The notes under the pieces: model-generated | The model's database searches: none | What the model was told of the DNA's origin: nothing | The model's input: only the letters and a program-made list of their open reading frames with translations | Origin: Bosea vestrisii | Lineage (GTDB): Bacteria; Pseudomonadota; Alphaproteobacteria; Rhizobiales; Beijerinckiaceae | Direction: 5' to 3' | Length of the DNA: 64,000 nucleotides | NCBI RefSeq assembly: GCF_030144325.1 | Contig: NZ_CP126307.1 | Span: 459,748-523,747, forward strand | Shown here: in pieces, positions 19,899 to 33,471 of the stretch | Layout: the number at the start of each line of letters is the position of its first letter | How positions within the stretch are numbered: position 1 is the stretch's first letter | Made by a program: the position numbers and the translations under genes

Positions 19899-20576
19899 GT
19901 GGACATCTTCGACAGGTTGAAAACCGCTGCCGCACCCGCTTGGGCGTCCTATGTCGAGCATGATTTCGTGCGGCAGATGGGCGACGGCTCGCTCCCCGAG
20001 GCCGCGTTCCGGACCTATCTCGTCCAGGACTATCTCTTCCTCATCCAGTTCGCCCGCGCCTATGCGCTGGCGACCTATAAGAGCCGCAATCTCGCCGACA
20101 TGCGTGCCGCCAAGGCCGGCCTCTCCGCCATCCTCGACCTCGAGATGGACCTGCACGTCCGGCTCTGCGGCCGCTGGGGCCTCTCGCCGGAACAGCTGGA
20201 AGCTGCGCCCGAACATCAGGCGACGGTCGCCTATACCCGCTTCGTGCTCGATTGCGGGCAGGCTGGCGACCTGCTCGACCTTCACGTAGCGCTCGCGCCC
20301 TGCGTCGTCGGCTATGCCGAGATCGGTGCCCGCCTCGCCGCCGGGCTGGGACCGGCGCTAGCGACCCATCCCTATCGCGACTGGATCGGCGAATATGCCG
20401 GCGCGCCTTACCAGCAGGTCGCCCGCGACGCCCGCCGACATCTCGATGCCCTCGCCGCGCGGGCCATGACCGAAGCGCGCTTCAGCGAGCTCGCGGCATT
20501 GTTCGGCCTGGCCTCAAGACTGGAGGCCGATTTCTGGCAGATGGGACTGGAGGCGGTCGCCCTGGCTGCGAGGTAG
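19899..20576 (+). CDS. tenA: TenA family thiaminase II / aminopyrimidine aminohydrolase
   Basis: ...SYVEHDFVRQMGDGSLPEAAFRTYLVQDYLFLIQFARAYALATYKS... is characteristic of the TenA/THI-4 family. Confidence 0.75.
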   Translation: MDIFDRLKTAAAPAWASYVEHDFVRQMGDGSLPEAAFRTYLVQDYLFLIQFARAYALATYKSRNLADMRAAKAGLSAILDLEMDLHVRLCGRWGLSPEQLEAAPEHQATVAYTRFVLDCGQAGDLLDLHVALAPCVVGYAEIGARLAAGLGPALATHPYRDWIGEYAGAPYQQVARDARRHLDALAARAMTEARFSELAALFGLASRLEADFWQMGLEAVALAAR

Positions 20577-20815
20577 CGGCGAAGGTCTATACGGCGGCCG
20601 CCCACGTTCCAGCCCGCCTTGCAGCCAAACTCGAACGAGATCAAAGGGCAATAAGACCAACTGCCCCATGCGCCCGATGCAGGCCCGTCAGCCCATCGCC
20701 GGCCTCGACGGCTGTCCTGCATTGCCGGAAGACCAGTCCAACGCCGCGATCCCTTGGCTCCGTCTGTTCGGATGCCAAAGGGCATAGACACGTCGACGAG
20801 GCTGGGGGACCTGGT

Positions 20816-22033
20816 TTGAAGCTGCCGTTATGGGGGAGCGCCCTGAGCGCGACTCTCCTTGTGCAAGTCGTGAGTTCGTTCGCCGCTGCCGCGATCCCGC
20901 TGCTTGGGCCGATCCTGACGCTGCGTTGGGGCCTGGCGCCTGAAAACATCGGCTATGTTTCGGCCGTCGTCTCGGTCGGGATCTGCTGGTTTCTGGCCTG
21001 TGGCGGCCCGATGCTCGATCACCACGGCCCCATCCGCACGTTGCAACTCGGCCTGATCTTCGTCGTCGCGGGCCTGGCGCTCCTGTCGCAGCCGGCCATT
21101 TCGCTCGGGCTCGCCGGAGCGCTGCTCGTGGGTCTGGGGCTGGCGCCTAACACACCCGCCGGTAGCCAGGTCCTGATGCGCACCGCGCCGGCCGGACATC
21201 GCACGCTGATCTTCTCGATCAAGCAGGCGGGCGTGCCGCTCGGAGGGGCGATCGCCGGCATTACAGTCGCGCCTTTGGTCCTGGCGTTCGGCTTCATCGG
21301 CGCGGTTTCGACCATCATCGCCGTCGTGCTTGCCTGCACCGTGCTGGTCCAGGCCTTTCAGCCGCGGCTCGATACGGAACGGGGCCCCCGAAACCGGGGC
21401 TGGCCACGCCTGTTCCTGTCGCCATCGTCGCTGACGAGAGCAGCCCGCATCATCAACGCCCATCCGGGGTTGCCGATGCTCACCGCGATCGGGATTTCGT
21501 TCTCGATCACGCAAGCCTGCATCACGGCCTTCACCGCGACCTACATGGTCGTCCAGCATGGCGCGAGCCTGGCCCAGGCCGGGCTCTATATGTCGGTGCT
21601 GCTTGCGACGAGCACGGTCGCACGCATCGTCTTCGGATGGCTGGCGGACCGGTTGGGATCGGGCCTTCTGCTCCTGTCGGTCCTGGCGCTGGCCGCGGGC
21701 AGCGCAATCCTGCTGCTGGTGTGGTCGGCAACGGCAAGCCCCTGGCTGGTCTATGGCTGCATGGCGCTGGTCGGGGCGACATCGATGGGCTGGAACGGGG
21801 TTCACATGGCCGAGCTCGCGAGGGTTTCGCCGCTTGCGATCATTGGCGATGTGACGTCGAGCGCCAGCATGTTCGGCTTCATCGGCTCGATCTGCGGACC
21901 GTTGGTGTTCGCCATGATTGCCAGCAAGACCGGAAGCTTCACCTGGCCCTTCGTTCTTGTCGCTGGTCAGCTAATCGCCTTCGGGGCGTTCGCTCTCGTC
22001 ATCGGGCGGTTCGTCTCCCGATCGCATCGATGA
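20816..22033 (+). CDS. MFS transporter
   Basis: About 12 TM helices (LSATLLVQVVSSFAAAAIPLLGPIL..., ...GWLADRLGSGLLLLSVLALAAGSAILLL...). The long ORF from 20252 overlaps tenA, so the start is placed at the in-frame TTG 20816, which follows a GGGGGA SD. Start is uncertain. Confidence 0.65.
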   Translation: MKLPLWGSALSATLLVQVVSSFAAAAIPLLGPILTLRWGLAPENIGYVSAVVSVGICWFLACGGPMLDHHGPIRTLQLGLIFVVAGLALLSQPAISLGLAGALLVGLGLAPNTPAGSQVLMRTAPAGHRTLIFSIKQAGVPLGGAIAGITVAPLVLAFGFIGAVSTIIAVVLACTVLVQAFQPRLDTERGPRNRGWPRLFLSPSSLTRAARIINAHPGLPMLTAIGISFSITQACITAFTATYMVVQHGASLAQAGLYMSVLLATSTVARIVFGWLADRLGSGLLLLSVLALAAGSAILLLVWSATASPWLVYGCMALVGATSMGWNGVHMAELARVSPLAIIGDVTSSASMFGFIGSICGPLVFAMIASKTGSFTWPFVLVAGQLIAFGAFALVIGRFVSRSHR

Positions 22034-22268
22034 GAGGCGCATCGCGCCCGGTACGCCCCGGGATAGTCCACGCGATTCCGACGGCTAAGGTTCGGTAGCT
22101 TCCCGAGCGGGAGCCTTTCGCCAGCGAAAAGCAGACCCTCGGCAATATCTACGACCTTGGCAGTAGACCGGCCTGTGCTAGCCTAGATTTAGAGCGGAAC
22201 AAAAATCCGCCATCGGCTCCGCCGTTGGAAACCTTCGGCGCGGTCGGCCACGCAGGGAGGTGAATGCA

Positions 22269-23519
22269 ATGCGGAAGGCACTTATGGCCGCCGTTGCGGT
22301 CGGCGCTTTGATTGCGGCCGGTGGGACCGGCCAGGCTCAGGAAAAGCTCAAGATCGGCATGCTGGCGACGCTTTCGGGCGCGCTGACGTCGGGTGGCGAG
22401 GACGGTGTACGCGGTGCTCAGGTCGCCCTGAAGCAGCGTGGCGGCAAGATCGCCGGCCGCGAGGTCGAGTTCATCATCGCAGCGACCGACGCCAGCCCGG
22501 ACTCTGCGCTTCGGGCCGCGCGCAAGCTCGTCGAGCAGGACAAGGTCCAGCTCATCCTCGGCCCACTTTCGGGCTCCGAGGGCATCGCGATGCGCGACTA
22601 CTCGAAGACGGTTCCTAACGTCACTGTCGTCGACGCATCGTCGGGAGCGCTCGAGACCACCTACGTCAATCCATCGCCGAACTATTTCCGCTTCAACAGC
22701 AACGGCGCCATGTGGATGGCAGGTCTCGGCGACTACGTATTCAAGGACAAGGGCTACAAGAAGCTTGCGGTCATCGGCGAGGACTACTCCTTCCCCTATA
22801 CGCAGGTCTTCGGCTTCGCGCTCGGCTACTGCAAGGCCGGCGGCCAGATCGTGCAGCGTCAGTGGGTGCCGCTCGGCACCAAGGATTTTGGCTCGGTGAT
22901 CGCCAATATCCCCGATGACGTCGACGCCGTCTTCCTCGCGCTCGGCGGCGGCGACTCCGTCAACTTCCTCAACCAGTACGGTCAGACCGGCGGCAAGGCG
23001 AAGTTCGTCGGCGGCTCGATCATGGTCGACCAGACCGTGCTGTCGTCGCGCGGTAACGCCAAGCGCCTGCTCGTCGGCACGCCCTCCTCGGGCGGCGTCG
23101 CCGATGCCTGGGACGATCCGAAATGGAAGGCCTGGGTCAAGGCCTACCAAGACGCATTCCCGGCGGATAAGCGCTTTGCCAGCCCGTCCCTGTTCGCGAC
23201 CAATTATTACAATGCCTTCAACGGCATGGCGACAGGCCTTGAGAAGGTCAACGCCGACCTCTCCGATGGCGGGACCAAGCTTCGGGCCGAACTCGCCAAG
23301 GTCGAGCTTGATGCCCCGAACGGCCCGATCAAGCTCGACGACAACCGGCAGGCGATCGCCACGACATTCATCACCGAAGTCGTCGAGGCGGCCAATGGCG
23401 ACCTCACCAACAAGTTCGTCAAGACGGTGCCGAACGTCTCGCAGACGCTCGGCCTCTCCGCCGAGGCGTTCAAGGCCGTCGGGCTTCCGTCCCGGACCAA
23501 TCCGGAATGCAAGCCCTGA
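22269..23519 (+). CDS. ABC transporter substrate-binding protein, branched-chain amino acid (LivK/Peripla_BP_6) family
   Basis: A signal peptide (MRKALMAAVAVGALIAAGGTGQAQ) and a periplasmic-binding-protein type I fold (...KIGMLATLSGALTSGGEDGVRGAQVALKQ...). GGGAGG SD lies 8 nt upstream of ATG 22269. Confidence 0.85.
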   Translation: MRKALMAAVAVGALIAAGGTGQAQEKLKIGMLATLSGALTSGGEDGVRGAQVALKQRGGKIAGREVEFIIAATDASPDSALRAARKLVEQDKVQLILGPLSGSEGIAMRDYSKTVPNVTVVDASSGALETTYVNPSPNYFRFNSNGAMWMAGLGDYVFKDKGYKKLAVIGEDYSFPYTQVFGFALGYCKAGGQIVQRQWVPLGTKDFGSVIANIPDDVDAVFLALGGGDSVNFLNQYGQTGGKAKFVGGSIMVDQTVLSSRGNAKRLLVGTPSSGGVADAWDDPKWKAWVKAYQDAFPADKRFASPSLFATNYYNAFNGMATGLEKVNADLSDGGTKLRAELAKVELDAPNGPIKLDDNRQAIATTFITEVVEAANGDLTNKFVKTVPNVSQTLGLSAEAFKAVGLPSRTNPECKP

Positions 23520-23689: not shown

Positions 23690-24544
23690 ATGAGTCGCGC
23701 AGTCGCGGTCTGCCACGGTCCGTTCGGACGGGTATCGATCTACGATCTCGATCGCCCGATGGTGGTGCATGCGCATCGCGAAGCGCATCTGATCTTCTTC
23801 CTCGAGGGCTCACAGGGCCTGGTTACGGTCAACGACCAGACCGTGCGCGTCGACCCTTTCATGGGCGTTGCCGTCAACCCCTGGGAACCGCACAATTTCC
23901 AGCCGGAACAACCCGGCTCGTTCGGCCTATTCCTCGTCGTCTATCTCAAGCCGGAATGGCTGGCCAAGCAGACCATGTCGGCGCCCGGCTCGCTGGTTTT
24001 TCCGTCCTCCGAACTGGTCGTGACCCGCGAGCTCGAGGCCTGGCGCGATCAGGCCATCGACATGCTGCTGTCCCGGCATAGCGAGCTCAACCTCGCCCCG
24101 GTGCTCATGGCGCTGGCGCTGGCGTCGAGCGAACCGATCGAGTCCCATCTCGCCTCCTCGCTGCTGCATCTCACGTCGGAGTCCGCACTCGACCGGCGCG
24201 TGCTGCGCGCCCGCCGGCTGTTGGAACAGTATCCCTCCCATGAGGGCGCACTTGTCCGCGTGGCGCGCGAGGCCGGGCTGTCGCGCGCCCATTTCTTCAA
24301 GCTCTTCCGCGAGCAGGTCGGCGTCACCCCGACGATCTTCGCCAATACGGTCCGGCTCGATGCGGCGCTCGACCGGATCGTTCTCTCGAACGATCCGGTG
24401 ACCAGCATCAGCCACAGCCTCGGCTTCTCCGGCCAGAGCGTGTTCACGCGCTTCTTCACCGCCCATATGGGCATGGCGCCACGCGACTACCGGCGGGTGC
24501 TGCGGACGGTGGGCCTGCCGCAATCGCAGGCGAGCCATGTCTGA
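23690..24544 (+). CDS. AraC family transcriptional regulator (cupin-like N-domain + AraC HTH)
   Basis: C-terminal ...LVRVAREAGLSRAHFFKLFREQVGVTPTIFANTVRLDAALDRIVLSNDPVTSISHSLGFSGQSVFTRFFTAHMGMAP... is the AraC-type double HTH. Confidence 0.85.
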   Translation: MSRAVAVCHGPFGRVSIYDLDRPMVVHAHREAHLIFFLEGSQGLVTVNDQTVRVDPFMGVAVNPWEPHNFQPEQPGSFGLFLVVYLKPEWLAKQTMSAPGSLVFPSSELVVTRELEAWRDQAIDMLLSRHSELNLAPVLMALALASSEPIESHLASSLLHLTSESALDRRVLRARRLLEQYPSHEGALVRVAREAGLSRAHFFKLFREQVGVTPTIFANTVRLDAALDRIVLSNDPVTSISHSLGFSGQSVFTRFFTAHMGMAPRDYRRVLRTVGLPQSQASHV

Positions 24545-25552: not shown

Positions 25553-26641
25553 ATGGCGCTCGCAGAACCCCGCCTCGCAATTGCGACTCCGCGCCAGCGC
25601 GAAGGGCTCAGCGAGGTGATCGCCCGGCAGGGCACGGCCTTCTGGATTGTCGCAGCCCTGCTGCTGATGATGCCGCTGATCGCGAACCCGTTCTGGCTCG
25701 TCCAGATCCTCGCCTACGCGATGATCCTCGGCATGATCGCGCTCAGCCTGATGTTCCTTGCCGGCTATGGCGGCATCGTCAGCCTGATCCAGATGACGGT
25801 CGCGGCCTTCGCCGCCTATCTCGTCGCCATCTTCGGCGACAGCGCCATCACCCAGATCAGCCTGAAATGGCCGTGGTGGACGGCGGTGCCGGTCGCGATC
25901 CTGCTCGCCACTTTGTTCGGCACGCTGGGCGGCGCACTCTCGGTCAGGACCGAGGGCATCTACACGATCATGATCACGCTCGCGATCGGCTCGGCATTCT
26001 ACTACCTGACGCTGCAGAACTACACGATCTTCAATGGTTTCAGCGGCTTCAACGGGGTTCTTCCTCCGGTCTTCCTCGGGGTCGACTGGGGCAGCACCGT
26101 GCCGTTCTATTACCTTGCGCTCGGCTGCGCCGCCCTCGCTTATGCGGTCGTCGTCTATGTCTCGCGGGCGCCCTTCGGCCTTGCCTTGCAGGGCACGCGC
26201 GACAATCCCAGGCGCATGGCGGCGCTCGGCTTCGACGTCGTCGCCCATCGCATCGCCGCCTATGCCTTTGCCTCGGTGATCGCCGCGTTCGCCGGTGTGC
26301 TGCTGGTCTGGTATCAGCGCCAGGTCTCGCCCGGGACGGGCGGTGTCGGGCCGGTGGTCGACATGCTGATCATCGCCGTGGTCGGTGGATTGAGCCGCCC
26401 GATCGGCCCGTTCATCGGCGCGCTCGTCTATGTGCTGCTGCGGACCTTCGCGCTCGACCTGCTCGAAGCGGTCGGGTTCGAGGGCAAGCGCTATCAGCTG
26501 CTCATCGGCCTCGGCTTCCTCGTCATCGTGCTGTTCTCGCCGGACGGGCTGATCGGCATCTGGCAGCGCCTGCGCGAGCGCTATCGTCGCGGCCGCGAGA
26601 CGCAGGCAGCACAGATGCGCGTCGGCGGAGGCTCGCCATGA
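25553..26641 (+). CDS. Branched-chain amino acid ABC transporter permease (LivM-like)
   Basis: The second BPD_transp_2-type permease (...LAYAMILGMIALSLMFLAGYGGIVSLIQMTVAAFAAY...). ATG 25553 lies 3 nt after the LivH-like stop. Confidence 0.85.
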   Translation: MALAEPRLAIATPRQREGLSEVIARQGTAFWIVAALLLMMPLIANPFWLVQILAYAMILGMIALSLMFLAGYGGIVSLIQMTVAAFAAYLVAIFGDSAITQISLKWPWWTAVPVAILLATLFGTLGGALSVRTEGIYTIMITLAIGSAFYYLTLQNYTIFNGFSGFNGVLPPVFLGVDWGSTVPFYYLALGCAALAYAVVVYVSRAPFGLALQGTRDNPRRMAALGFDVVAHRIAAYAFASVIAAFAGVLLVWYQRQVSPGTGGVGPVVDMLIIAVVGGLSRPIGPFIGALVYVLLRTFALDLLEAVGFEGKRYQLLIGLGFLVIVLFSPDGLIGIWQRLRERYRRGRETQAAQMRVGGGSP

Positions 26642-27426
26642 GCGCCGTGCCGAGCCTGGAGCGGCTGAGCACTGCCAGCTCGGGCAATGCGCTCGAACTG
26701 CGCGGCGTCTCGCGCCTGTTCGGTGCGCTCGCGGCCCTGTCCGACGTCACGCTGTCGGTCCGGCCCGGCGAGCGGCGCGCCGTGCTCGGCTCGAACGGGG
26801 CCGGCAAGACCACGCTGTTCAACTGCGTCACCGGCGATTTCACGCCGAGCTCCGGCGTCATCCGCTTCTTCGGCGAGGATGTTACGACATTCCCGCCGCA
26901 TGAGCGCATCCGCCGCGGGCTCAGGCGCACCTACCAGATCTCGTCGCTCTTCGCCGGGCTGACGGTGGTCGACAATGTCTACCTCGCCTGCCGCGGCGTC
27001 TCGCGGAACCGTTTCTCGCTGCGGCGGCCGCGCCGTGACGACACGCTCCAGCATGCTGCCGAGAGCCTGGTCGATGCCGTCCATCTCACGGCCGTCAAGG
27101 ACAGGCTGGTCGGAGAGCTTGCCTATGGCCAGCAGCGCCAGCTCGAGATCGCCCTCGCCCTCTCGGGCGCACCGCGCTTCATCCTGTTCGACGAGCCGGC
27201 GGCGGGCCTGTCGCCGACCGAGCGGCAGGATCTCGTCCGGATCCTGACCTCGCTGCCGGCCCATATCGGCTACATCATCATCGAGCACGACATGGACGTG
27301 GCGCTACGCGTCGTCGAGAGCGTGACGATGATGCACAACGGCCGCATCTTCAAGGAAGGACGGCCCGACGAGATCGAGTCCGATCCCGAAGTGCAGGAAC
27401 TCTATCTCGGGGGCGGTCATGGCTGA
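26638..27426 (+). CDS. ABC transporter ATP-binding protein (LivG-like)
   Basis: Walker A GSNGAGKTT, signature YGQQRQLEIALAL and Walker B ILFDEPAAGL. ATGA overlap with the upstream permease. Confidence 0.85.
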   Translation: MSAVPSLERLSTASSGNALELRGVSRLFGALAALSDVTLSVRPGERRAVLGSNGAGKTTLFNCVTGDFTPSSGVIRFFGEDVTTFPPHERIRRGLRRTYQISSLFAGLTVVDNVYLACRGVSRNRFSLRRPRRDDTLQHAAESLVDAVHLTAVKDRLVGELAYGQQRQLEIALALSGAPRFILFDEPAAGLSPTERQDLVRILTSLPAHIGYIIIEHDMDVALRVVESVTMMHNGRIFKEGRPDEIESDPEVQELYLGGGHG

Positions 27427-29662
27427 GCGCCTGAAAGCCCCACCCGCCGCCGGCGTTCCGATCCTGCAGATCGCGGGCTTGAATGTCTTCTACGGCCGCT
27501 CGCACGCCGTCCAGGGTGTCGACCTCACGCTGCAGCACGGCGTCCTCTCCGTCGTCGGTCGCAATGGCATGGGCAAGACGACCATGTGCAAGGCGATCAT
27601 GGGGCTGGTCCCGATCGCATCGGGCTCGATCCGCTTCTTCGGCGAGGAGATCGCCGGCCGCTCGCCGGCCGAGGTGGCGCGACTCGGCATCGGCTATGTG
27701 CCGCAAGGCCGCCGGCTCTGGCGCTCGCTGACGGTCGACGAGCATTTGCGGCTGATGCAGCGCGGCAAGCGCGGCGCCTGGACGCCGGAGCGCATCTACG
27801 AGGTCTTCCCGCGCCTGGCCGAGCGCCGCAGCAATGGCGGCGGCCAGCTCTCCGGCGGCGAGCAGCAGATGCTGGCGATCAGCCGGGCGCTGCTGCTCAA
27901 TCCCCGCTTGCTGGTCATGGACGAGCCGACCGAGGGGTTGGCGCCGGTCATCGTCGCCCATGTCGAGGAGATGCTGGTCCGGCTCGCCGACCAGGGCGAT
28001 GTCGCGATCCTGGTGATCGAGCAGAACATCGGCGTCGCCACGCAGATGTCCGACCCCGTCGCGATCATGGTCAACGGCCGGATCAACCGCATCATCGCCT
28101 CGGCGACGCTCGCCGGCGACCGCGAGCTGCAGCAGCGCCTGCTCGGCGTCGGCCGCCACGGCCATGACGATACCGATGCGGCCTTGGACACCGCGCGTCC
28201 CGGCACGGCCGCAGAGGCCGCCTCCCCCGCCCCGACCGGACCGATCCGCGTCTATGTCTCGAACCCGGTTATCCCGAACCGCTGGTCACAAGCCGTGCCG
28301 GCCGCCCGTATCGAGGCTCAGGCCCGCACCATCTCGCGCCCGACGCTGGCGACCCGCGATGGCCAGCCGATCGGCGGGGTCCGGCCGCTCGCGGCTGCGG
28401 CGAACAGCGAGCCCTATGTGGTCGTCGCCGGCACGCTCGACACCAAGGGCGAGGAGCTGCGTTTCATCCGCGACCTGATCCGGGCCGAGGGGTTGCGCAC
28501 CCGTCTCGTCGATCTGTCGACATCCGGCCGCAGTGCCGGGGGTGACGTCACCCCGCAAGAGGTCGCCCTCGCCCATCCGAAAGGCTCGGCCGGCATCTCC
28601 TCAGGCGATCGCGGCACGGCGGTCGCGGCGATGACCGAGGCGTTCAAAGCCTGGCTGCCGCGCCAGCAGGGCCTGCTCGGCATCATCTCGGCCGGCGGCT
28701 CGGGCGCCACCGCGATGGTAACGCCGGCGATGCAGGCGCTGCCGGTCGGCCTGCCCAAGTTGATGATCTCGACCATGGCGTCGGGCGATGTCCGCGCCTA
28801 TGTCGGCGCCACCGACATCGCGATGCTGCACGCCGTCACCGATGTGCAGGGCATCAACCGTGTCTCGCGCCTCGTGCTCGGCAATGGTGCGCACGCCATC
28901 GCCGCCATGGCCAAGGCCCGCCTCGCCGAGCTCAAGCCCGAAGGGCCGCGCCGCCGGGAGCCCGAGAAGCCGCTGGTCGGGCTCACCATGTTCGGCGTGA
29001 CCACGCCTTGCGTCCAGCAAGTCTCCAGGCTCCTCGCCGCGGAATGGGAACCGCTCGTCTTCCACGCCACCGGCACCGGTGGCCGCTCGCTGGAGAAGCT
29101 GGTCGATTCCGAGCTCGTCAGCGCGGTGATCGACGTCTCGACCACTGAGATCTGCGACATGCTGATGGGCGGCATCCTGCCGGCGACGGAGGACCGTTTC
29201 GGCGCGATCATCCGCACCCGCATCCCCTATGTCGGCTCGGTCGGCGCGCTCGACATGGTGAACTTCGCCGCGCCCGAGAGCGTGCCCGAGCGCTATCGCG
29301 GCCGCCTCCTCTATCCGCACAACCCGCAGATCACCCTGATGCGGACCACGTCGGAGGAGAACACGCGTATGGGCCGCTGGATCGGCGAGCGGCTGAACCA
29401 GATGGAAGGGCCGGTCCGCTTCCTGATCCCCGAGCTCGGCGTCTCCGCCCTGGATGCACCCGGCCAGCCTTTCCACGACCCGTCCGCCGATGCGGCGTTG
29501 TTCCAGGCGCTGGAGCAGACGGTGCGCACCAGTTCGAACCGGCAGCTCATCCGCCTGCCGCTCCACATCAACGACCCCGCCTTCGCCTCGGCATTGGTGC
29601 AGCAGTTCCGCACCCTGCACGCCGGGAGGCGGCGCGAGCGGGCCGGCGGAGGCAGGTCATGA
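27419..29662 (+). CDS. ABC transporter ATP-binding protein (LivF-like, aa 1-~245) continuing in frame into a UPF0261/Tm-1-like domain (aa ~330-747); possible fusion
   Basis: N-terminal GRNGMGKTT...[16 protein letters not shown]...[13 protein letters not shown] is a LivF-like ATPase, normally ~240 aa ending about ...[10 protein letters not shown]. There is no stop for another 1.5 kb. After an Ala/Pro-rich ~85-aa linker comes ...[24 protein letters not shown]...[21 protein letters not shown]...[12 protein letters not shown]..., a UPF0261 (PF06792) domain. An in-frame GTG at 28418 ([13 protein letters not shown]) could be an independent UPF0261 start. Confidence 0.55.
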
Positions 29663-30540
29663 CGAGCTTCGACAAGAAGGCCCTGCTGAAACGCTTCCGG
29701 GCGATGATCGCCAGGGGCGAGCCGATTGTCGGCGGCGGCGCCGGCACGGGCCTGTCCGCCAAATGCGAAGAGGCCGGCGGGATCGACCTGATCGTGATCT
29801 ACAATTCCGGCCGCTACCGCATGGCCGGCCGCGGCTCGCTCTCCGGGCTGATGCCCTATGGCGACGCCAACGCCATCGTCATGGAGATGGCGGCCGAAGT
29901 GCTGCCGGTCGTGAAGACAACGCCGGTGATCGCCGGCGTCTGCGGCACCGATCCGTTCCGGCGCATGGATGTCTTTCTCGACGAGGTGAAGCGCATCGGC
30001 TTTGCCGGCGTGCAGAACTTCCCGACCGTTGGCCTGATCGACGGCACCTTCCGCGCCAATCTCGAAGAGACCGGCATGGGCTTTGGGTTGGAGGTCGAGA
30101 TGATCGCCCTTGCCAACGCCAAGGGCCTGCTGACCACACCTTACGTCTTCTGCGAGGACGACGCCCGCGCGATGGCAAAAGCCGGCGCCGACATCATCGT
30201 CTGCCATCTCGGTCTCACCACCGGCGGCTCGATCGGCGCCGAAACGGCGCTCAAGCTCAAGGACTGCCCGGCGCTGGTCGAGCGCTGGGCGAAGGCTGCG
30301 CTCGCCGTGAAGAAGGATGCGATCATCCTCGTCCATGGCGGGCCTGTCGCCGAGCCGGCCGACGCCGACTTCATCATGAAGAACACGGTCAACTGCCACG
30401 GCTTCTACGGCGCGTCCTCGATGGAGCGCCTGCCGGTCGAGGTCGCGATCCGCGACCAGACCCGTGCCTTCAAGCAGATCGGCCGCGCAGCCAAAGCCAG
30501 CAAGCCGGCACGCAAGCCCGACAAAGGCACGAAACCATGA
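29659..30540 (+). CDS. Phosphoenolpyruvate hydrolase-like TIM-barrel protein (PF09370; homolog of the Tm-1 C-terminal domain)
   Basis: ...[61 protein letters not shown]...VCGTDPFR... is the characteristic PF09370 N-terminus. ATGA overlap with the preceding ORF and a GGAGG SD. Confidence 0.8.
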
Positions 30541-30715: not shown

Positions 30716-33471
30716 ATGACGGGGCAACTGATCGGATCGCTGATCCTCTGGCTGATCGTGGCGGTGATCATCATCGCCATCGTCGTCTATCTGGTGAACT
30801 GGCTCTACCGCCGGTCCTCGAAGGAGGTCTCCTTCGTCCGCACCGGCCTGTTCGGCGAAAAGGTGGTGATCAATGGCGGCGCCTTCGTGCTGCCGATCAT
30901 CCACGACGTCACGCCGGTCAACATGAACGTGCTGCAGCTCGCGGTGACGCGGGCGAGCAACGATGCGCTCATCACCCGCGACCGGATGCGCGTCGACATC
31001 GACGCCGAATTCTATGTCCGAGTGAAGCCGGAGCGGCAGTCGGTCTCCATCGCAGCCGCCACGCTCGGCCGGCGCACCCTGCAGCCGGACCAGCTCCATG
31101 CCCTCCTGTCCGGCAAGTTCATCTCCGCTCTCAGGACGGTCGCCTCCGAGATGACGATGGAGGAGATGCACGAGCAGCGCGGCGCCTATGTCCAGCGCGT
31201 CAAGGATGCCGCCGCCGAGGCGCTCGACCAGAACGGCCTCCTGCTGGAATCGGTTGCGCTCACCGATCTCGACCAGACCGACCTGCAATACTTCAACCCG
31301 TCCAACCGCTTCGACGCCGCCGGTCTGACGCGGATCATCGAGGAGATCGAGGACAAGCGGAAGCTTCGCAACGACATCGAGCAGGACTCGATGATCCGCA
31401 TCCGCACCCGCAACCTCGAAGCCGAACGCCAGGCGCTCGACATCGAACGCGAGAGCGAGACGGCGCGTCTCGAGCAGCAGCGCGAAATCGAGATCAAGCG
31501 CGCCATGCAGCGCACCGAGGTCGCCCGCGAGCGCGCCATCCGCGACACCGAGGCGGAGCAGGCCCAGATCACCTCGCGCGAAGAGATCGAGAAATCACGC
31601 ATCGCCAATGAGCGCGGGATCAGCGAAGCACGCATCGCTTCGGAGCGCGACATCCGCCAGCAGGAGATCGCCCGGACGCAGGCCGTCGAGGAGGCGGAGA
31701 TCGCCGCGCGCGAGCATGTCGAGAAGGCGCGCATCGCCAACGAGCAGACGATCAATGCCGTCCGCATCGCCTCCGAACGCGAGATCAGGCAGCAGGAGAT
31801 CGAGCGCACCAGGGTGCTGGAAGCAGCCGAGATCGAAGCGCGCGAGTCGACCGAGAAGGCGCGCATCCTGCAGGAAACCGCGGTGAGTGCCGAGCGCATC
31901 ACCCGCGAGCAGGAGATCCGCAATCGCGAGATCGAGCGCACCCGCACGCTCGACCAGGAAGACATCGCGGCGCGCGAGGCGGTCGAAACCTCCCGCATCG
32001 GCCAGGAAGAGCGCGTGCGCGCCCTCCAGATCGCCCGCAACAGAGCGCTGGACGAGGCTGAGATCAGCGCGCGTGAAGCGGTCGAGAAGGCAAGGATTGC
32101 CCAGGAGGACGCGATCACGGCCGACCGGATCGCCCTAGACCAGCGCAAGAGCCTGCTCGAGATCGGGCGTACCGAAGCGATCGACACCGCCGAAATCTCG
32201 GCCCGCGAAGCGACCGAAGCCGCCCGCATCGGCCAGGAGAAAGCCGTCGCGGCCGGTCGCATCGCCGCCGAACTCGCGACTAAGGGGCTCGAGATCAAGC
32301 GCAATGCCGAGCTCGACACCGCCGAGCTGAAGCGCCGCGACGCGGTCGAGCGCCAGCGGATCGCAACCGAGCTCGGTCTCGACGAAGAGCGGATCAATTC
32401 GAGCAAGACCCGCGAGATGCTGCAGATCGCCCAGAAGAAGGCGGTCGAGGTCGCCGAGGAAGAGCGCGCTATCGTGCTCGCCGCCAAGAAGGTCGAACGC
32501 GCCGACGCCGACAAGACACTGCGCCAGGCCGAGATCACCGCGCGCCAGCATGTCGAGACCGTCGACATCGCCCGCGAGCAGGCGCTGGAAGCGGTGCGGA
32601 TCGAGCGTCGCCGCGCGCTTGAGCAATTGGAAATCGCGCGCAATCAGGCGCTGCAGGAGGCGCAGATCGTCTCGAACGAGGAAGTCGAGCGGGCGCGTAT
32701 CTCCTCCGATCGCGGCCTCGACGAGGCCCGTATCGGTCGCCAGCGCGAGCTGCGCAAGCTCGAGATCGGGCGCGAACGCGAGGTCGAGGCGGCCGCCATG
32801 GACAAGGCGATCGCGCTCTACGCCAAGTCGCTGGAGGAATCGGCGGCGCAGGTCAGTGCCGAGATTGCCCGCGCCAAGGCGGTCGAGGCCGAGGAAAAGG
32901 TCAAGACCGTCCGCGAGAGGAGAGCGCGCAGCGGCGCAAGACCGTCGAGATCCTGCTCGCCGAGAAGGCCGCCGAAGAATCCCGCATTGCGTCCGAGGCC
33001 GAGAAGGTGCGCCGCGCCGTCGATGCCGAGGCGCAGAAGCTGCTCTACGAGGCCGAGAACGTGCTCAGCGACGGCGCCCGCTACGGGCTGTTCCGGCGGC
33101 GCCTGCTCGACAAGATCGAGGGCATCGTCCGCGAGAGCGTCAAGCCGATGGAGAAGATCGAAGGCATCCGCATCCTTCATGTCGATGGGCTCGCCGGTGC
33201 GGCCAGCGGCGCCGGTGGCGCCGCACGCTCGCCCACCGACGAGGTCATGGAGTCGGCGCTGCGCTACCGGGTCCAGGCGCCGATGATCGACCAGGTGCTG
33301 AAGGAGATCGGCATCGAGGGCGGCAATCTCGCCAAGATGGGCGGGCTCATGCGCGAGGCCTCGGACATGCAGCGCGTCGCCAAGGAAGCGCAGCCGGCCA
33401 AGCCGAAGGACAGTGGCGGTGAACCTGCCCCCGAAGGTGGCGGTCGCTCCGGCCCCCGCAAGAAATCGTGA
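30716..33471 (+). pseudogene. Flotillin-like SPFH/band-7 protein (YqiK-like) with long coiled-coil tandem repeats; single frameshift near 32915-32925
   Basis: N-terminal TM plus SPFH (...VSFVRTGLFGEKVVINGGAFVLPIIHDVTPVNMNVLQLAV...), then ~10 imperfect ~44-aa repeats (EAEIAAREHVEKARIANEQTINAVRIASEREIRQQEIERTRVL...). The frame-1 tail after ...KVKTVRE is Arg/Ser/Pro garbage. The true C-terminus (QRRKTVEILLAEKAAEESRIASEAEKVRRAVDAEAQKLLYEAENV...ILHVDGLAGAASG...) continues in the +2 frame to 33471. Confidence 0.65.

Follow-up and report, generated by a model that had tools for sequence, protein, structure and literature searches.

Proteins of the UPF0261 family are very widespread, and a catalytic activity was first reported for one of them in 2025. 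MarK (Saro_1862 of Novosphingobium aromaticivorans; entry 9MPY of the Protein Data Bank, PDB) phosphorylates phenolic aromatics in an ATP-dependent reaction yielding ADP, has K16 at its ATP site, and forms a homodimer via its N-terminal subdomain (PMC12624787); it is free-standing, and its gene belongs to an acetovanillone operon for which neither a transporter nor a TIM-barrel partner has been reported (PMC12624787). Plant UPF0261 has a functional link to a TIM-barrel module resembling phosphoenolpyruvate (PEP) hydrolase ("TBST"), and in plant Tm-1L the UPF0261 C-terminus is fused to this barrel (PMC5028733). Here we describe a gene of Bosea vestrisii in which the N-terminus of a UPF0261 module is joined to a LivF-type ABC ATPase. 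The gene lies in a stretch of 64,000 nucleotides (nt) of assembly GCF_030144325.1 (contig NZ_CP126307.1, positions 459,748 to 523,747, forward strand), called the window below; coordinates are those of the window. A preliminary description of the window hesitated between a true fusion and a LivF gene running through a stop-less spacer into a UPF0261 gene with its own internal start. We conclude with high confidence, from comparison of related sequences, that 27419..29662 is one gene, translated into one polypeptide, with a peptide motif under constraint inside a tether predicted to be disordered.

The closest described transporter subunits are LivF and UrtE, which share with the fused protein the ABC fold and motifs, including the EQN typical of the family, and the same set of partners (a LivG-type ATPase, two BPD_transp_2 permeases, and a Peripla_BP_6 binding protein). 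Canonical LivF and UrtE proteins end in ...YLG(G/V), whereas the fused protein runs for another 500 residues. MalK, MetN, and ModC carry small, compact C-terminal regulatory domains packed under the ATPase dimer, and the fusion resembles them in having an extra module at the C-terminus of an importer's nucleotide-binding subunit; it differs in that this module is a 416-residue, enzyme-like ATP-binding domain. The protein is best classed as an importer-type ABC ATPase bearing an accessory module at its C-terminus, unusual in the size and enzyme-like, ATP-binding character of the module, in its attachment by a tether predicted to be disordered, and in the invariant motif that the tether itself bears.

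Domains of the fused protein

The features of the gene are as follows, with lengths and positions in the protein given in amino acids (aa), dN/dS as the ratio of nonsynonymous to synonymous divergence, and pLDDT as the predicted local distance difference test of the structural model.

27419..29662, + strand: fused open reading frame (ORF), a single ORF of 747 aa whose stop is shared with the start of the next gene
27419..28153, + strand: LivF/UrtE-type ABC ATPase domain, aa 1-245 of the fusion (Pfam, NCBIfam, and sequence motifs)
28160..28237, + strand: variable linker segment 1, aa 248-273, rich in Ala, Pro, Glu, Asp, Gly, and Thr and in indels (81-sequence alignment; dN/dS 0.50, pLDDT 28-42)
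28238..28330, + strand: conserved linker motif, aa 274-304, 31 aa (81-sequence alignment; dN/dS 0.17)
28331..28411, + strand: variable linker segment 2, aa 305-331, indel-rich (dN/dS 0.43, pLDDT 36-43)
28412..29662, + strand: UPF0261 (Tm-1/MarK-type) two-subdomain ATP-binding module, aa 332-747 (PF06792 and PF23189, NF002673, PDB matches)
28418..28420, + strand: GTG codon of Val334, earlier suggested as an internal start; it encodes valine in the usual way, within the first beta-strand of UPF0261

Pfam divides the product into ABC_tran (aa 32-171), the N-terminal UPF0261 domain (333-501), and UPF0261_C (517-733). Similarity to LivF/UrtE-type proteins extends from aa 16 to about 245, and the Pfam scan gave no domain match across approximately aa 246-331, about 86 residues. 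This agrees with the layout given in the preliminary description, in which the LivF-like part ends at what corresponds to aa 248 (nt 28162) and some 85 codons, by our count about 83, precede UPF0261.

In the ATPase part, ABC_tran (PF00005) scored 89.6 bits against a cutoff of 25. Walker A (GRNGMGKT, 47), the Q-loop (VPQG, 94), the signature (LSGGE, 144), Walker B (LLVMDEP, 164), and IEQN (200), whose EQN takes the place of the H-loop in the LivF/LivG group, are all intact in the Bosea protein, and these motifs are invariant in 56 aligned sequences of the fused family. The scores fell below the equivalog cutoffs of both UrtE (TIGR03410, 221.2 vs. 285.8) and LivF (NF008626, 142.5 vs. 441), and we therefore assign this part as the LivF-type subunit of a HAAT-family system rather than as LivF or UrtE itself.

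The UPF0261 part scored 199.9 bits with PF06792 (N-terminal) and 298.3 bits with PF23189 (C-terminal), the cutoff being 27 for each, and 599.1 bits with NF002673 (PRK02399.1-1; aa 332-735; cutoff 520). It matches tomato Tm-1 (3WRY, E = 5e-93) and MarK (9MPY, E = 6e-59) in the PDB. The alignment with Tm-1 (3WRY, 3WRW; PMC5028733) runs from end to end and includes the GT-x-DTK, GALDMVNF, and GVSALDAPG pocket segments, although the known role of Tm-1, viral replicase binding, is irrelevant in bacteria. With MarK the module shares the same two-subdomain fold. The lysine of the G-T-x-D-T-K loop (K20 in Tm-1, K16 in MarK) is present, D341-T342-K343 aligning with MarK D14-T15-K16, and is invariant in the clade; the MarK ligand residues G195, H219, and H304 are likewise kept, as G526, H549, and H634, and do not vary across the main fused clade. 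The acetovanillone pocket of MarK (G195, T196, H219, F283, I285, H304, and H348) is thus preserved at these three positions and changed at the other four, where T196, F283, I285, and H348 are replaced by V, M, N, and L, as in Tm-1. We regard the module as apparently ATP-binding and probably catalytic, on another substrate than that of MarK. Nor does the gene have the architecture of plant Tm-1L: the Bosea TIM barrel is a separate, coupled gene (29659..30540), in another frame and with an ATGA overlap. An AlphaFold2 (AF2) model of the full chain, built on the 56-sequence alignment, has both domains folded (pLDDT about 85-95).

The junction and the tether

The Bosea sequence alone does not discriminate between one gene and two, as the preliminary description had recognized. 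When the 258-nt linker (28154-28411) was shuffled with its dinucleotides preserved, 33% of the shuffles also had no in-frame stop, and a second plus-strand frame is likewise open across the interval; the missing stops are therefore uninformative here, and comparative data have to decide. The check on codon periodicity that had been proposed gave GC contents at codon positions 1/2/3 of 0.73/0.65/0.84 in the linker vs. 0.71/0.45/0.93 in the LivF part: the periodicity is retained but weaker, which fits an Ala/Pro/Gly-rich coding sequence and is weakly informative.

The comparison is based on a scan of species representatives (one genome per species), from which we took the best 80 of 567 confirmed relatives (58-93% identity). 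The 80 loci span the Hyphomicrobiales, Rhodobacterales, Acetobacteraceae, and Geminicoccaceae (all Alphaproteobacteria), with members from Bosea, Bradyrhizobium, Methylobacterium, Microvirga, Phreatobacter, Pseudolabrys, Roseiarcus, Hoeflea, Phyllobacterium, Mesorhizobium, Devosiaceae, Roseibium, Acuticoccus, several Rhodobacterales, and Roseomonas/Acetobacteraceae. The LivF-type and UPF0261 parts lie in a single stop-free frame in every one of these loci. Linker length varies between 73 and 91 aa in 18 length classes without the frame ever being broken, implying many independent indels, each of them frame-preserving. The database homologues among the matches listed (120 + 120) are all 717-761 aa long and contain both domains.

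Substitution rates point the same way. On 13 sequences, from Bosea to Methylobacterium, dN/dS is 0.13 in the LivF part, 0.50 in the first arm of the linker, 0.17 in the motif, 0.43 in the second arm, and 0.19 in UPF0261; for the linker as a whole it is 0.34, well below 1, so that the linker evolves as coding sequence. By these ratios, purifying selection on the motif matches that on the catalytic domains. Synonymous divergence within the motif (dS 0.87) is no lower than in the flanking domains, which indicates that the constraint acts on the peptide. A DNA or RNA element at this site was considered and rejected, since synonymous sites vary freely (dS 0.87). The alignment of orthologs that had been called for thus found a motif conserved as protein and no stop, and it bears out the fusion.

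The competing arrangement of two genes, with a LivF-type gene, a stop-less GC-rich spacer, and a UPF0261 gene starting at GTG 28418, either instead of the fusion or besides it, receives hardly any credence from us. The GTG exists, in frame, as codon 334; a start there would give a conventional N-terminus, comparable to those of unfused proteins (MKRIYVVGT, MPTVVLIGT), and both the unremarkable open frame of the single sequence and the existence of a split arrangement in Thermomicrobium roseum are in keeping with it. However, codon 334 is GTG in just 30 of 81 sequences, the others having GTC, GTT, or GTA or, in five cases, ATC, GCG, or CTC, so that a start is possible in those 30 alone. The 17 nt upstream of 28418 hold no Shine-Dalgarno (SD) sequence: their duplex with the anti-SD reaches -2.8 kcal/mol, at the 41st percentile of in-frame positions in the ORF, compared with -8.6 kcal/mol for the real start at 27419 and -9.5 kcal/mol for that at 29659. 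Unfused UPF0261 genes have strong SDs, those of Sinorhizobium starting at GGAGGAGAG-ATG (MKRIYVVGT…) and GGAAGGAGAAAG-ATG (MNRVYVVGT…), both with SDs of the GGAGG type. At the LivF-UPF0261 junction there is neither a promoter-like nor a terminator-like site, nor an RNA family. The variation at codon 334 is ordinary valine codon usage; with a frame kept in 80/80 loci across 18 linker lengths and a dN/dS of 0.17 in the motif as well, the internal start once suggested is not supported.

A stop after the LivF domain followed by a separate ribosome-binding site and start, the pattern that the preliminary description had named as contradicting a fusion, was found only in a distant phylum, and the linker does not evolve as non-coding sequence. 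The exception is T. roseum (Thermomicrobiota), on plasmid NC_011961 (TRD_RS14640 / TRD_RS14635 / TRD_RS09630), where the order is permease, permease, binding protein, LivG-type, LivF-type, Tm-1-like, and PEP hydrolase, the last four following one another as in the fused cluster. The LivF-type protein has 244 aa (59% identical) and the Tm-1-like protein 412 aa (49% identical). Their junction reads …YLGVSAWQAA-stop, then a 12-nt spacer, AGGGAGGGCCCG, with AGGGAGGG, then ATG-MPTVVLIGTLDTKG; the operon has no linker, no motif, and no flotillin gene. This split pattern without any linker is best read as the ancestral unfused state, with the fusion having arisen, as far as sequence can tell, from an operon of adjacent but separate LivF-type and UPF0261 genes.

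An assembly or sequencing artefact, in which an indel erased the LivF stop and merged two genes, is almost certainly not the explanation. Indels, real or artefactual, do occur in the window, where the neighboring flotillin gene shows an apparent frameshift, but architecture and frame are the same in 80 independent genomes and in over 240 proteins of the databases, and an exact 747-aa match is annotated in B. vestrisii. Other points weigh against the single-polypeptide model. The 80 loci and 240 homologues were ranked by similarity to the fused query and so carry an ascertainment bias; closely related split operons could occur among the remainder of the 567 confirmed relatives; and there may be a minor internally initiated product, or proteolytic cleavage within the disordered tether. 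With these provisos we take the gene model to be settled as one 747-aa protein rather than two genes.

The linker had been characterized as low-complexity sequence rich in Ala, Pro, and Arg. This is true of its two flanks, both of which are unalignable among the 81 sequences, but not of its center (aa 274-304), which is a specific and near-invariant motif with the consensus GP-x-[RK]-[IV]-Y-x-[SA]-N-P-x-x-P-[TN]-R-W-[ST]-x-x-V-P-x-x-x-[IL]-E-x-x-A-R. Residues N282, P283, P286, R288, and W289 are invariant in 81/81 sequences, and at least 96% of them share Y279, E299, A302, and R303. The linker matches no Pfam family even at E ≤ 10 and no Rfam family, and its PDB matches are at chance level only (E 0.6-0.7). 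An exhaustive phmmer search with the linker against 1.84 billion representative proteins gave 60 matches, mostly contig-end or frameshifted fragments; the informative ones are all fragments of the fused family (with the LivF C-terminus before the motif, the UPF0261 N-terminus after it, or both), and no complete stand-alone protein with the motif was among them. Such a search is fit for judging the family specificity of the motif and useless for counting complete proteins.

In the AF2 model, residues 243-329 have pLDDT values of 28-54, and within the motif just a strand (276-278) and a short helix (295-300) appear. The tether of about 86 residues is thus predicted to be disordered. A conserved block within a low-pLDDT tether behaves as a short linear motif in a disordered linker, and on this model it would be expected to order only upon binding a partner. 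Being predicted as disordered, and hence accessible, the tether could also be the site of post-translational cleavage, in which case its short conserved motif would direct protease recognition or maturation and leave the mature proteins separate. We consider this very unlikely: the conserved cluster contains no protease gene, an obligatory cut after fusion would bring little gain over the ancestral split operon, and 31 conserved residues are long for a cleavage site. We infer that the conserved motif serves to dock a partner in trans, for which LivG or the permeases, the TIM-barrel protein, and the flotillin-family scaffold, whose gene always lies second downstream of the fusion, are candidates.

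Gene cluster and relatives

The genes surrounding the fusion are the following.

22260..23519, + strand: Peripla_BP_6 periplasmic binding protein, 419 aa (PF13458, E = 3e-58); syntenic in most related loci
23690..24544, + strand: AraC-family regulator (cupin/AraC_binding and HTH_18, Pfam); position kept in 66/80 loci, absences mostly at contig ends
24537..25550, + strand: HAAT-family permease 1 (BPD_transp_2; PF02653, E = 8e-34; synteny)
25553..26641, + strand: HAAT-family permease 2 (BPD_transp_2; PF02653, E = 1e-32), with an in-frame ATG at 25553
26638..27426, + strand: LivG/UrtD-type ABC ATPase, partner of the fused subunit (ABC_tran and BCA_ABC_TP_C), with an in-frame ATG at 26638
29659..30540, + strand: PEP-hydrolase-like TIM-barrel protein ("TBST"), the usual partner of UPF0261 (PF09370, E = 8e-130; PDB 2p10, E = 3e-117)
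30716..33286, + strand: flotillin-family protein (SPFH/Band_7 and a long coiled coil; Pfam Band_7)

A complete HAAT importer set is therefore encoded together with the fusion: the Peripla_BP_6 protein, two BPD_transp_2 permeases, and a second, LivG-type ATPase, for which NCBIfam UrtD and LivG are the best matches, below their cutoffs. All genes lie on one strand in the order binding protein, AraC regulator, two permeases, LivG-type ATPase, fusion, PEP-hydrolase-like protein, and flotillin. The full order is found in 51 of the 80 loci, nearly all the others being cut by contig ends, and in all 71 loci with at least 2.5 kb of downstream sequence the TIM-barrel and flotillin-family genes both follow the fusion. 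The LivG stop overlaps the start of the fused ORF (ATGGCTGA), and the stop of the fused ORF overlaps the start of the PEP-hydrolase-like gene as ATGA, with GGAGG as SD (GGAGG-N6-ATGA). These two overlaps are a signature of translational coupling among LivG, the fusion, and the PEP-hydrolase-like gene.

Farther upstream, the stop of the AraC gene overlaps the start codon of the first permease gene by 8 nt on the same strand (23690-24544 / 24537), so the regulator is probably cotranscribed and translationally coupled with the genes presumably under its control. The binding-protein gene is closely preceded, in the same orientation, by an MFS_1 transporter ORF (20252-22033, 593 aa, TTG start).

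The flotillin gene itself is frameshifted near 32,900-32,930 (window positions 30716-33460): its ORF has 856 aa vs. 961-970 aa at five related loci (L001-L004, L008). After ...EEKVKTVRE it continues into an out-of-frame tail rich in Arg, Pro, and Ser, and the orthologous C-terminus (KTVEILLAEKAAEESRIASEAEK…YEAENVLSDGARYGLFRRRLL) is found in another frame. The break is either real, as a frameshift or a pseudogene, or an assembly indel.

Outside the main clade, UPF0261 occurs both unfused and in divergent fused forms. In a collection of annotated plasmids and chromids, the closest stand-alone relatives come from Sinorhizobium and Rhizobium plasmids (55-58% identical, annotated "Tm-1-like ATP-binding domain-containing protein"); each has a PEP-hydrolase-family gene and then a cupin gene behind it and ABC transporters of the sugar type beside it, and the unfused Sinorhizobium loci have no flotillin gene; the fused form is present on Shinella and Yoonia chromids. 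Two Sinorhizobium plasmid loci (L081, L082) have a stand-alone Tm-1-like and PEP-hydrolase pair followed by a cupin gene, beside ABC transporters of the sugar type (CUT1), so the importers with which the pair is associated seem to come from more than a single ABC family. One of them (L082) has a second, shortened PEP-hydrolase-family gene upstream on the opposite strand.

Variovorax paradoxus (Betaproteobacteria; CP063167, L084:5947-12682) has a fused gene of 750 aa, with domains 65% and 59% identical and a linker of about 95 aa that keeps just the RVY and TRW anchors of the motif. The order there is amidohydrolases, permeases, binding protein, LivG, and fusion, and after these a PEP-hydrolase gene and one annotated "flotillin family protein". 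This fused form looks independent, but its fusion event may be separate from that of the main clade or the same one.

A second divergent fused lineage, represented by protein P0139 on a metagenome scaffold (L083, 8001-13629), has no PEP-hydrolase/TIM-barrel gene, and its putative catalytic residues are altered (K→R, G→D, H→A, N→R, H→Y). It retains the fusion and the motif (RIYVSNPAPPTRWS), and directly downstream a 1142-aa flotillin (SPFH + Flot, 54% identical). In a small, midpoint-rooted neighbor-joining tree of UPF0261 domains that included the Variovorax protein, P0139, and P0163, the main fused clade is coherent. SRPBCC genes recur near these clusters, two after the Variovorax flotillin and others, SRPBCC/Polyketide_cyc2 genes, farther downstream on the P0139 scaffold, which also carries the gene set of a molybdenum hydroxylase of the CO-dehydrogenase type.

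Proposed function and cargo

The tethering of UPF0261 to a HAAT-type importer, together with a split ancestral operon in another phylum, suggests that the Tm-1-like/TIM-barrel pair acts on an imported small molecule, and we grade this guilt-by-association evidence as strong. A possible sequence of events is that the importer, with its fused LivF-type subunit, would bring in a small solute, possibly phenolic or aromatic, and that the tethered UPF0261 module and the co-translated TIM-barrel protein would bind ATP and, on the inner side of the transporter, phosphorylate or otherwise process it, which would couple uptake to the first metabolic step. That the cargo is handed directly to the tethered UPF0261/TIM-barrel enzyme for ATP-dependent phosphorylation is a tentative reading of the sequences, to which we give somewhat less than an even chance. 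Should this mechanism hold, it would work like the group translocation of the phosphotransferase system, in which uptake is physically coupled to solute phosphorylation; there is no homology between the two, and in the present case, an ABC importer, ATP would serve both as energy source and as phosphoryl donor, at two different sites.

Several observations weigh against a catalytic hand-over of this kind. The pocket changes F283→M, I285→N, and H348→L mean that the substrate is not that of MarK and that the fused protein is no MarK ortholog. Tm-1, the closest solved relative, is not known to be catalytically active. In the P0139 lineage the putative catalytic residues are lost, and the tethered domain would be non-catalytic there. 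UPF0261 proteins are homodimeric, to judge from MarK, vs. one copy of the module per LivG/LivF transporter, although a tether this long could permit modules of neighboring transporters to pair. Finally, AF2 run on the full chain did not place the motif.

In the main alternative, which we think rather less likely, the UPF0261 module would be a regulatory or sensor domain that binds ATP or a metabolite and gates the ATPase, as in MalK, MetN, and ModC, or an assembly module only. Regulatory domains at the C-terminus are common on ABC importer ATPases. Tm-1, to which the module is so closely related (E = 5e-93), works by ATP-bridged binding rather than by catalysis, and the TIM-barrel partner family has been termed "signal transduction" (PMC5028733). 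The P0139 lineage, too, has kept fusion, motif, and flotillin though its catalytic residues and the PEP-hydrolase gene are gone. On the other hand, the sole biochemical activity known for UPF0261 is ATP-dependent phosphorylation, by MarK; neither the D-T-K site nor the G/H/H ligand residues vary within the main clade; and an 86-residue tether predicted to be disordered contrasts with the tight packing of the regulatory domains in MalK or MetN.

The flotillin gene gives a further clue. Fusion and flotillin co-occur in the 71 of 71 loci, in Variovorax, and in the P0139 lineage, whereas neither the split T. roseum operon nor the unfused Sinorhizobium loci have a flotillin gene. Since the two travel together with or without an active UPF0261, the flotillin scaffold is a candidate partner of the motif. 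The motif might thus recruit the transporter-enzyme complex to a flotillin scaffold, or clamp UPF0261 and the TIM barrel onto the ATPase dimer, forming an "uptake-and-phosphorylate" machine of a membrane microdomain; drawn from sequence patterns, this proposal seems to us doubtful. Motif and invariant flotillin neighbor nevertheless provide a concrete hypothesis for how bacterial flotillins could recruit client transporters, and the docking reading, if true, would amount to an ATP-driven analogue of group translocation in a membrane microdomain.

As to the cargo, the nearest solved relatives of the binding protein are 4zpj, 4ey3/4eyg/4eyk, 4evq, and 4evs, ahead of the binders of urea and of Leu/Ile/Val. 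Of these, 4ey3, 4evq, and 4evs are binders of benzoate derivatives from Rhodopseudomonas. Among binding proteins of COG0683, aromatics are common ligands in place of branched-chain amino acids (PMC3223731). By analogy, this is a weak hint that the cargo could be a phenolic or aromatic acid, and the phenolic substrates of MarK point in the same direction. The binding protein of the cluster would be a tractable route to the substrate of the UPF0261/TIM-barrel pair.

Our search of the accessible literature found no paper on an ABC-UPF0261 fusion, on the linker motif, or on the flotillin association. The fusion, which the preliminary description had considered as a possible novel protein, is real but already annotated in public databases, under names that are inconsistent and in part wrong. 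The NCBI name for the fused family, "ABC transporter permease", is incorrect, as the protein has no membrane domain; JGI uses [quoted passage not shown], and other records have "Tm-1-like ATP-binding domain-containing protein", "LivF", or "HAAT family ATP-binding protein 2". The comparison thereby exposes a systematic misnaming, in which "permease" is applied to a soluble ATPase-enzyme fusion. Two organism names are also at odds with the sequences that bear them: locus L036 ("Frankia sp. RB7") has a Bradyrhizobium-like cluster, and protein P0027 ("MAG: Stutzerimonas stutzeri") is Bosea-like (92% identical), in both cases likely by contamination, mis-binning, or mislabelling rather than by lateral transfer.

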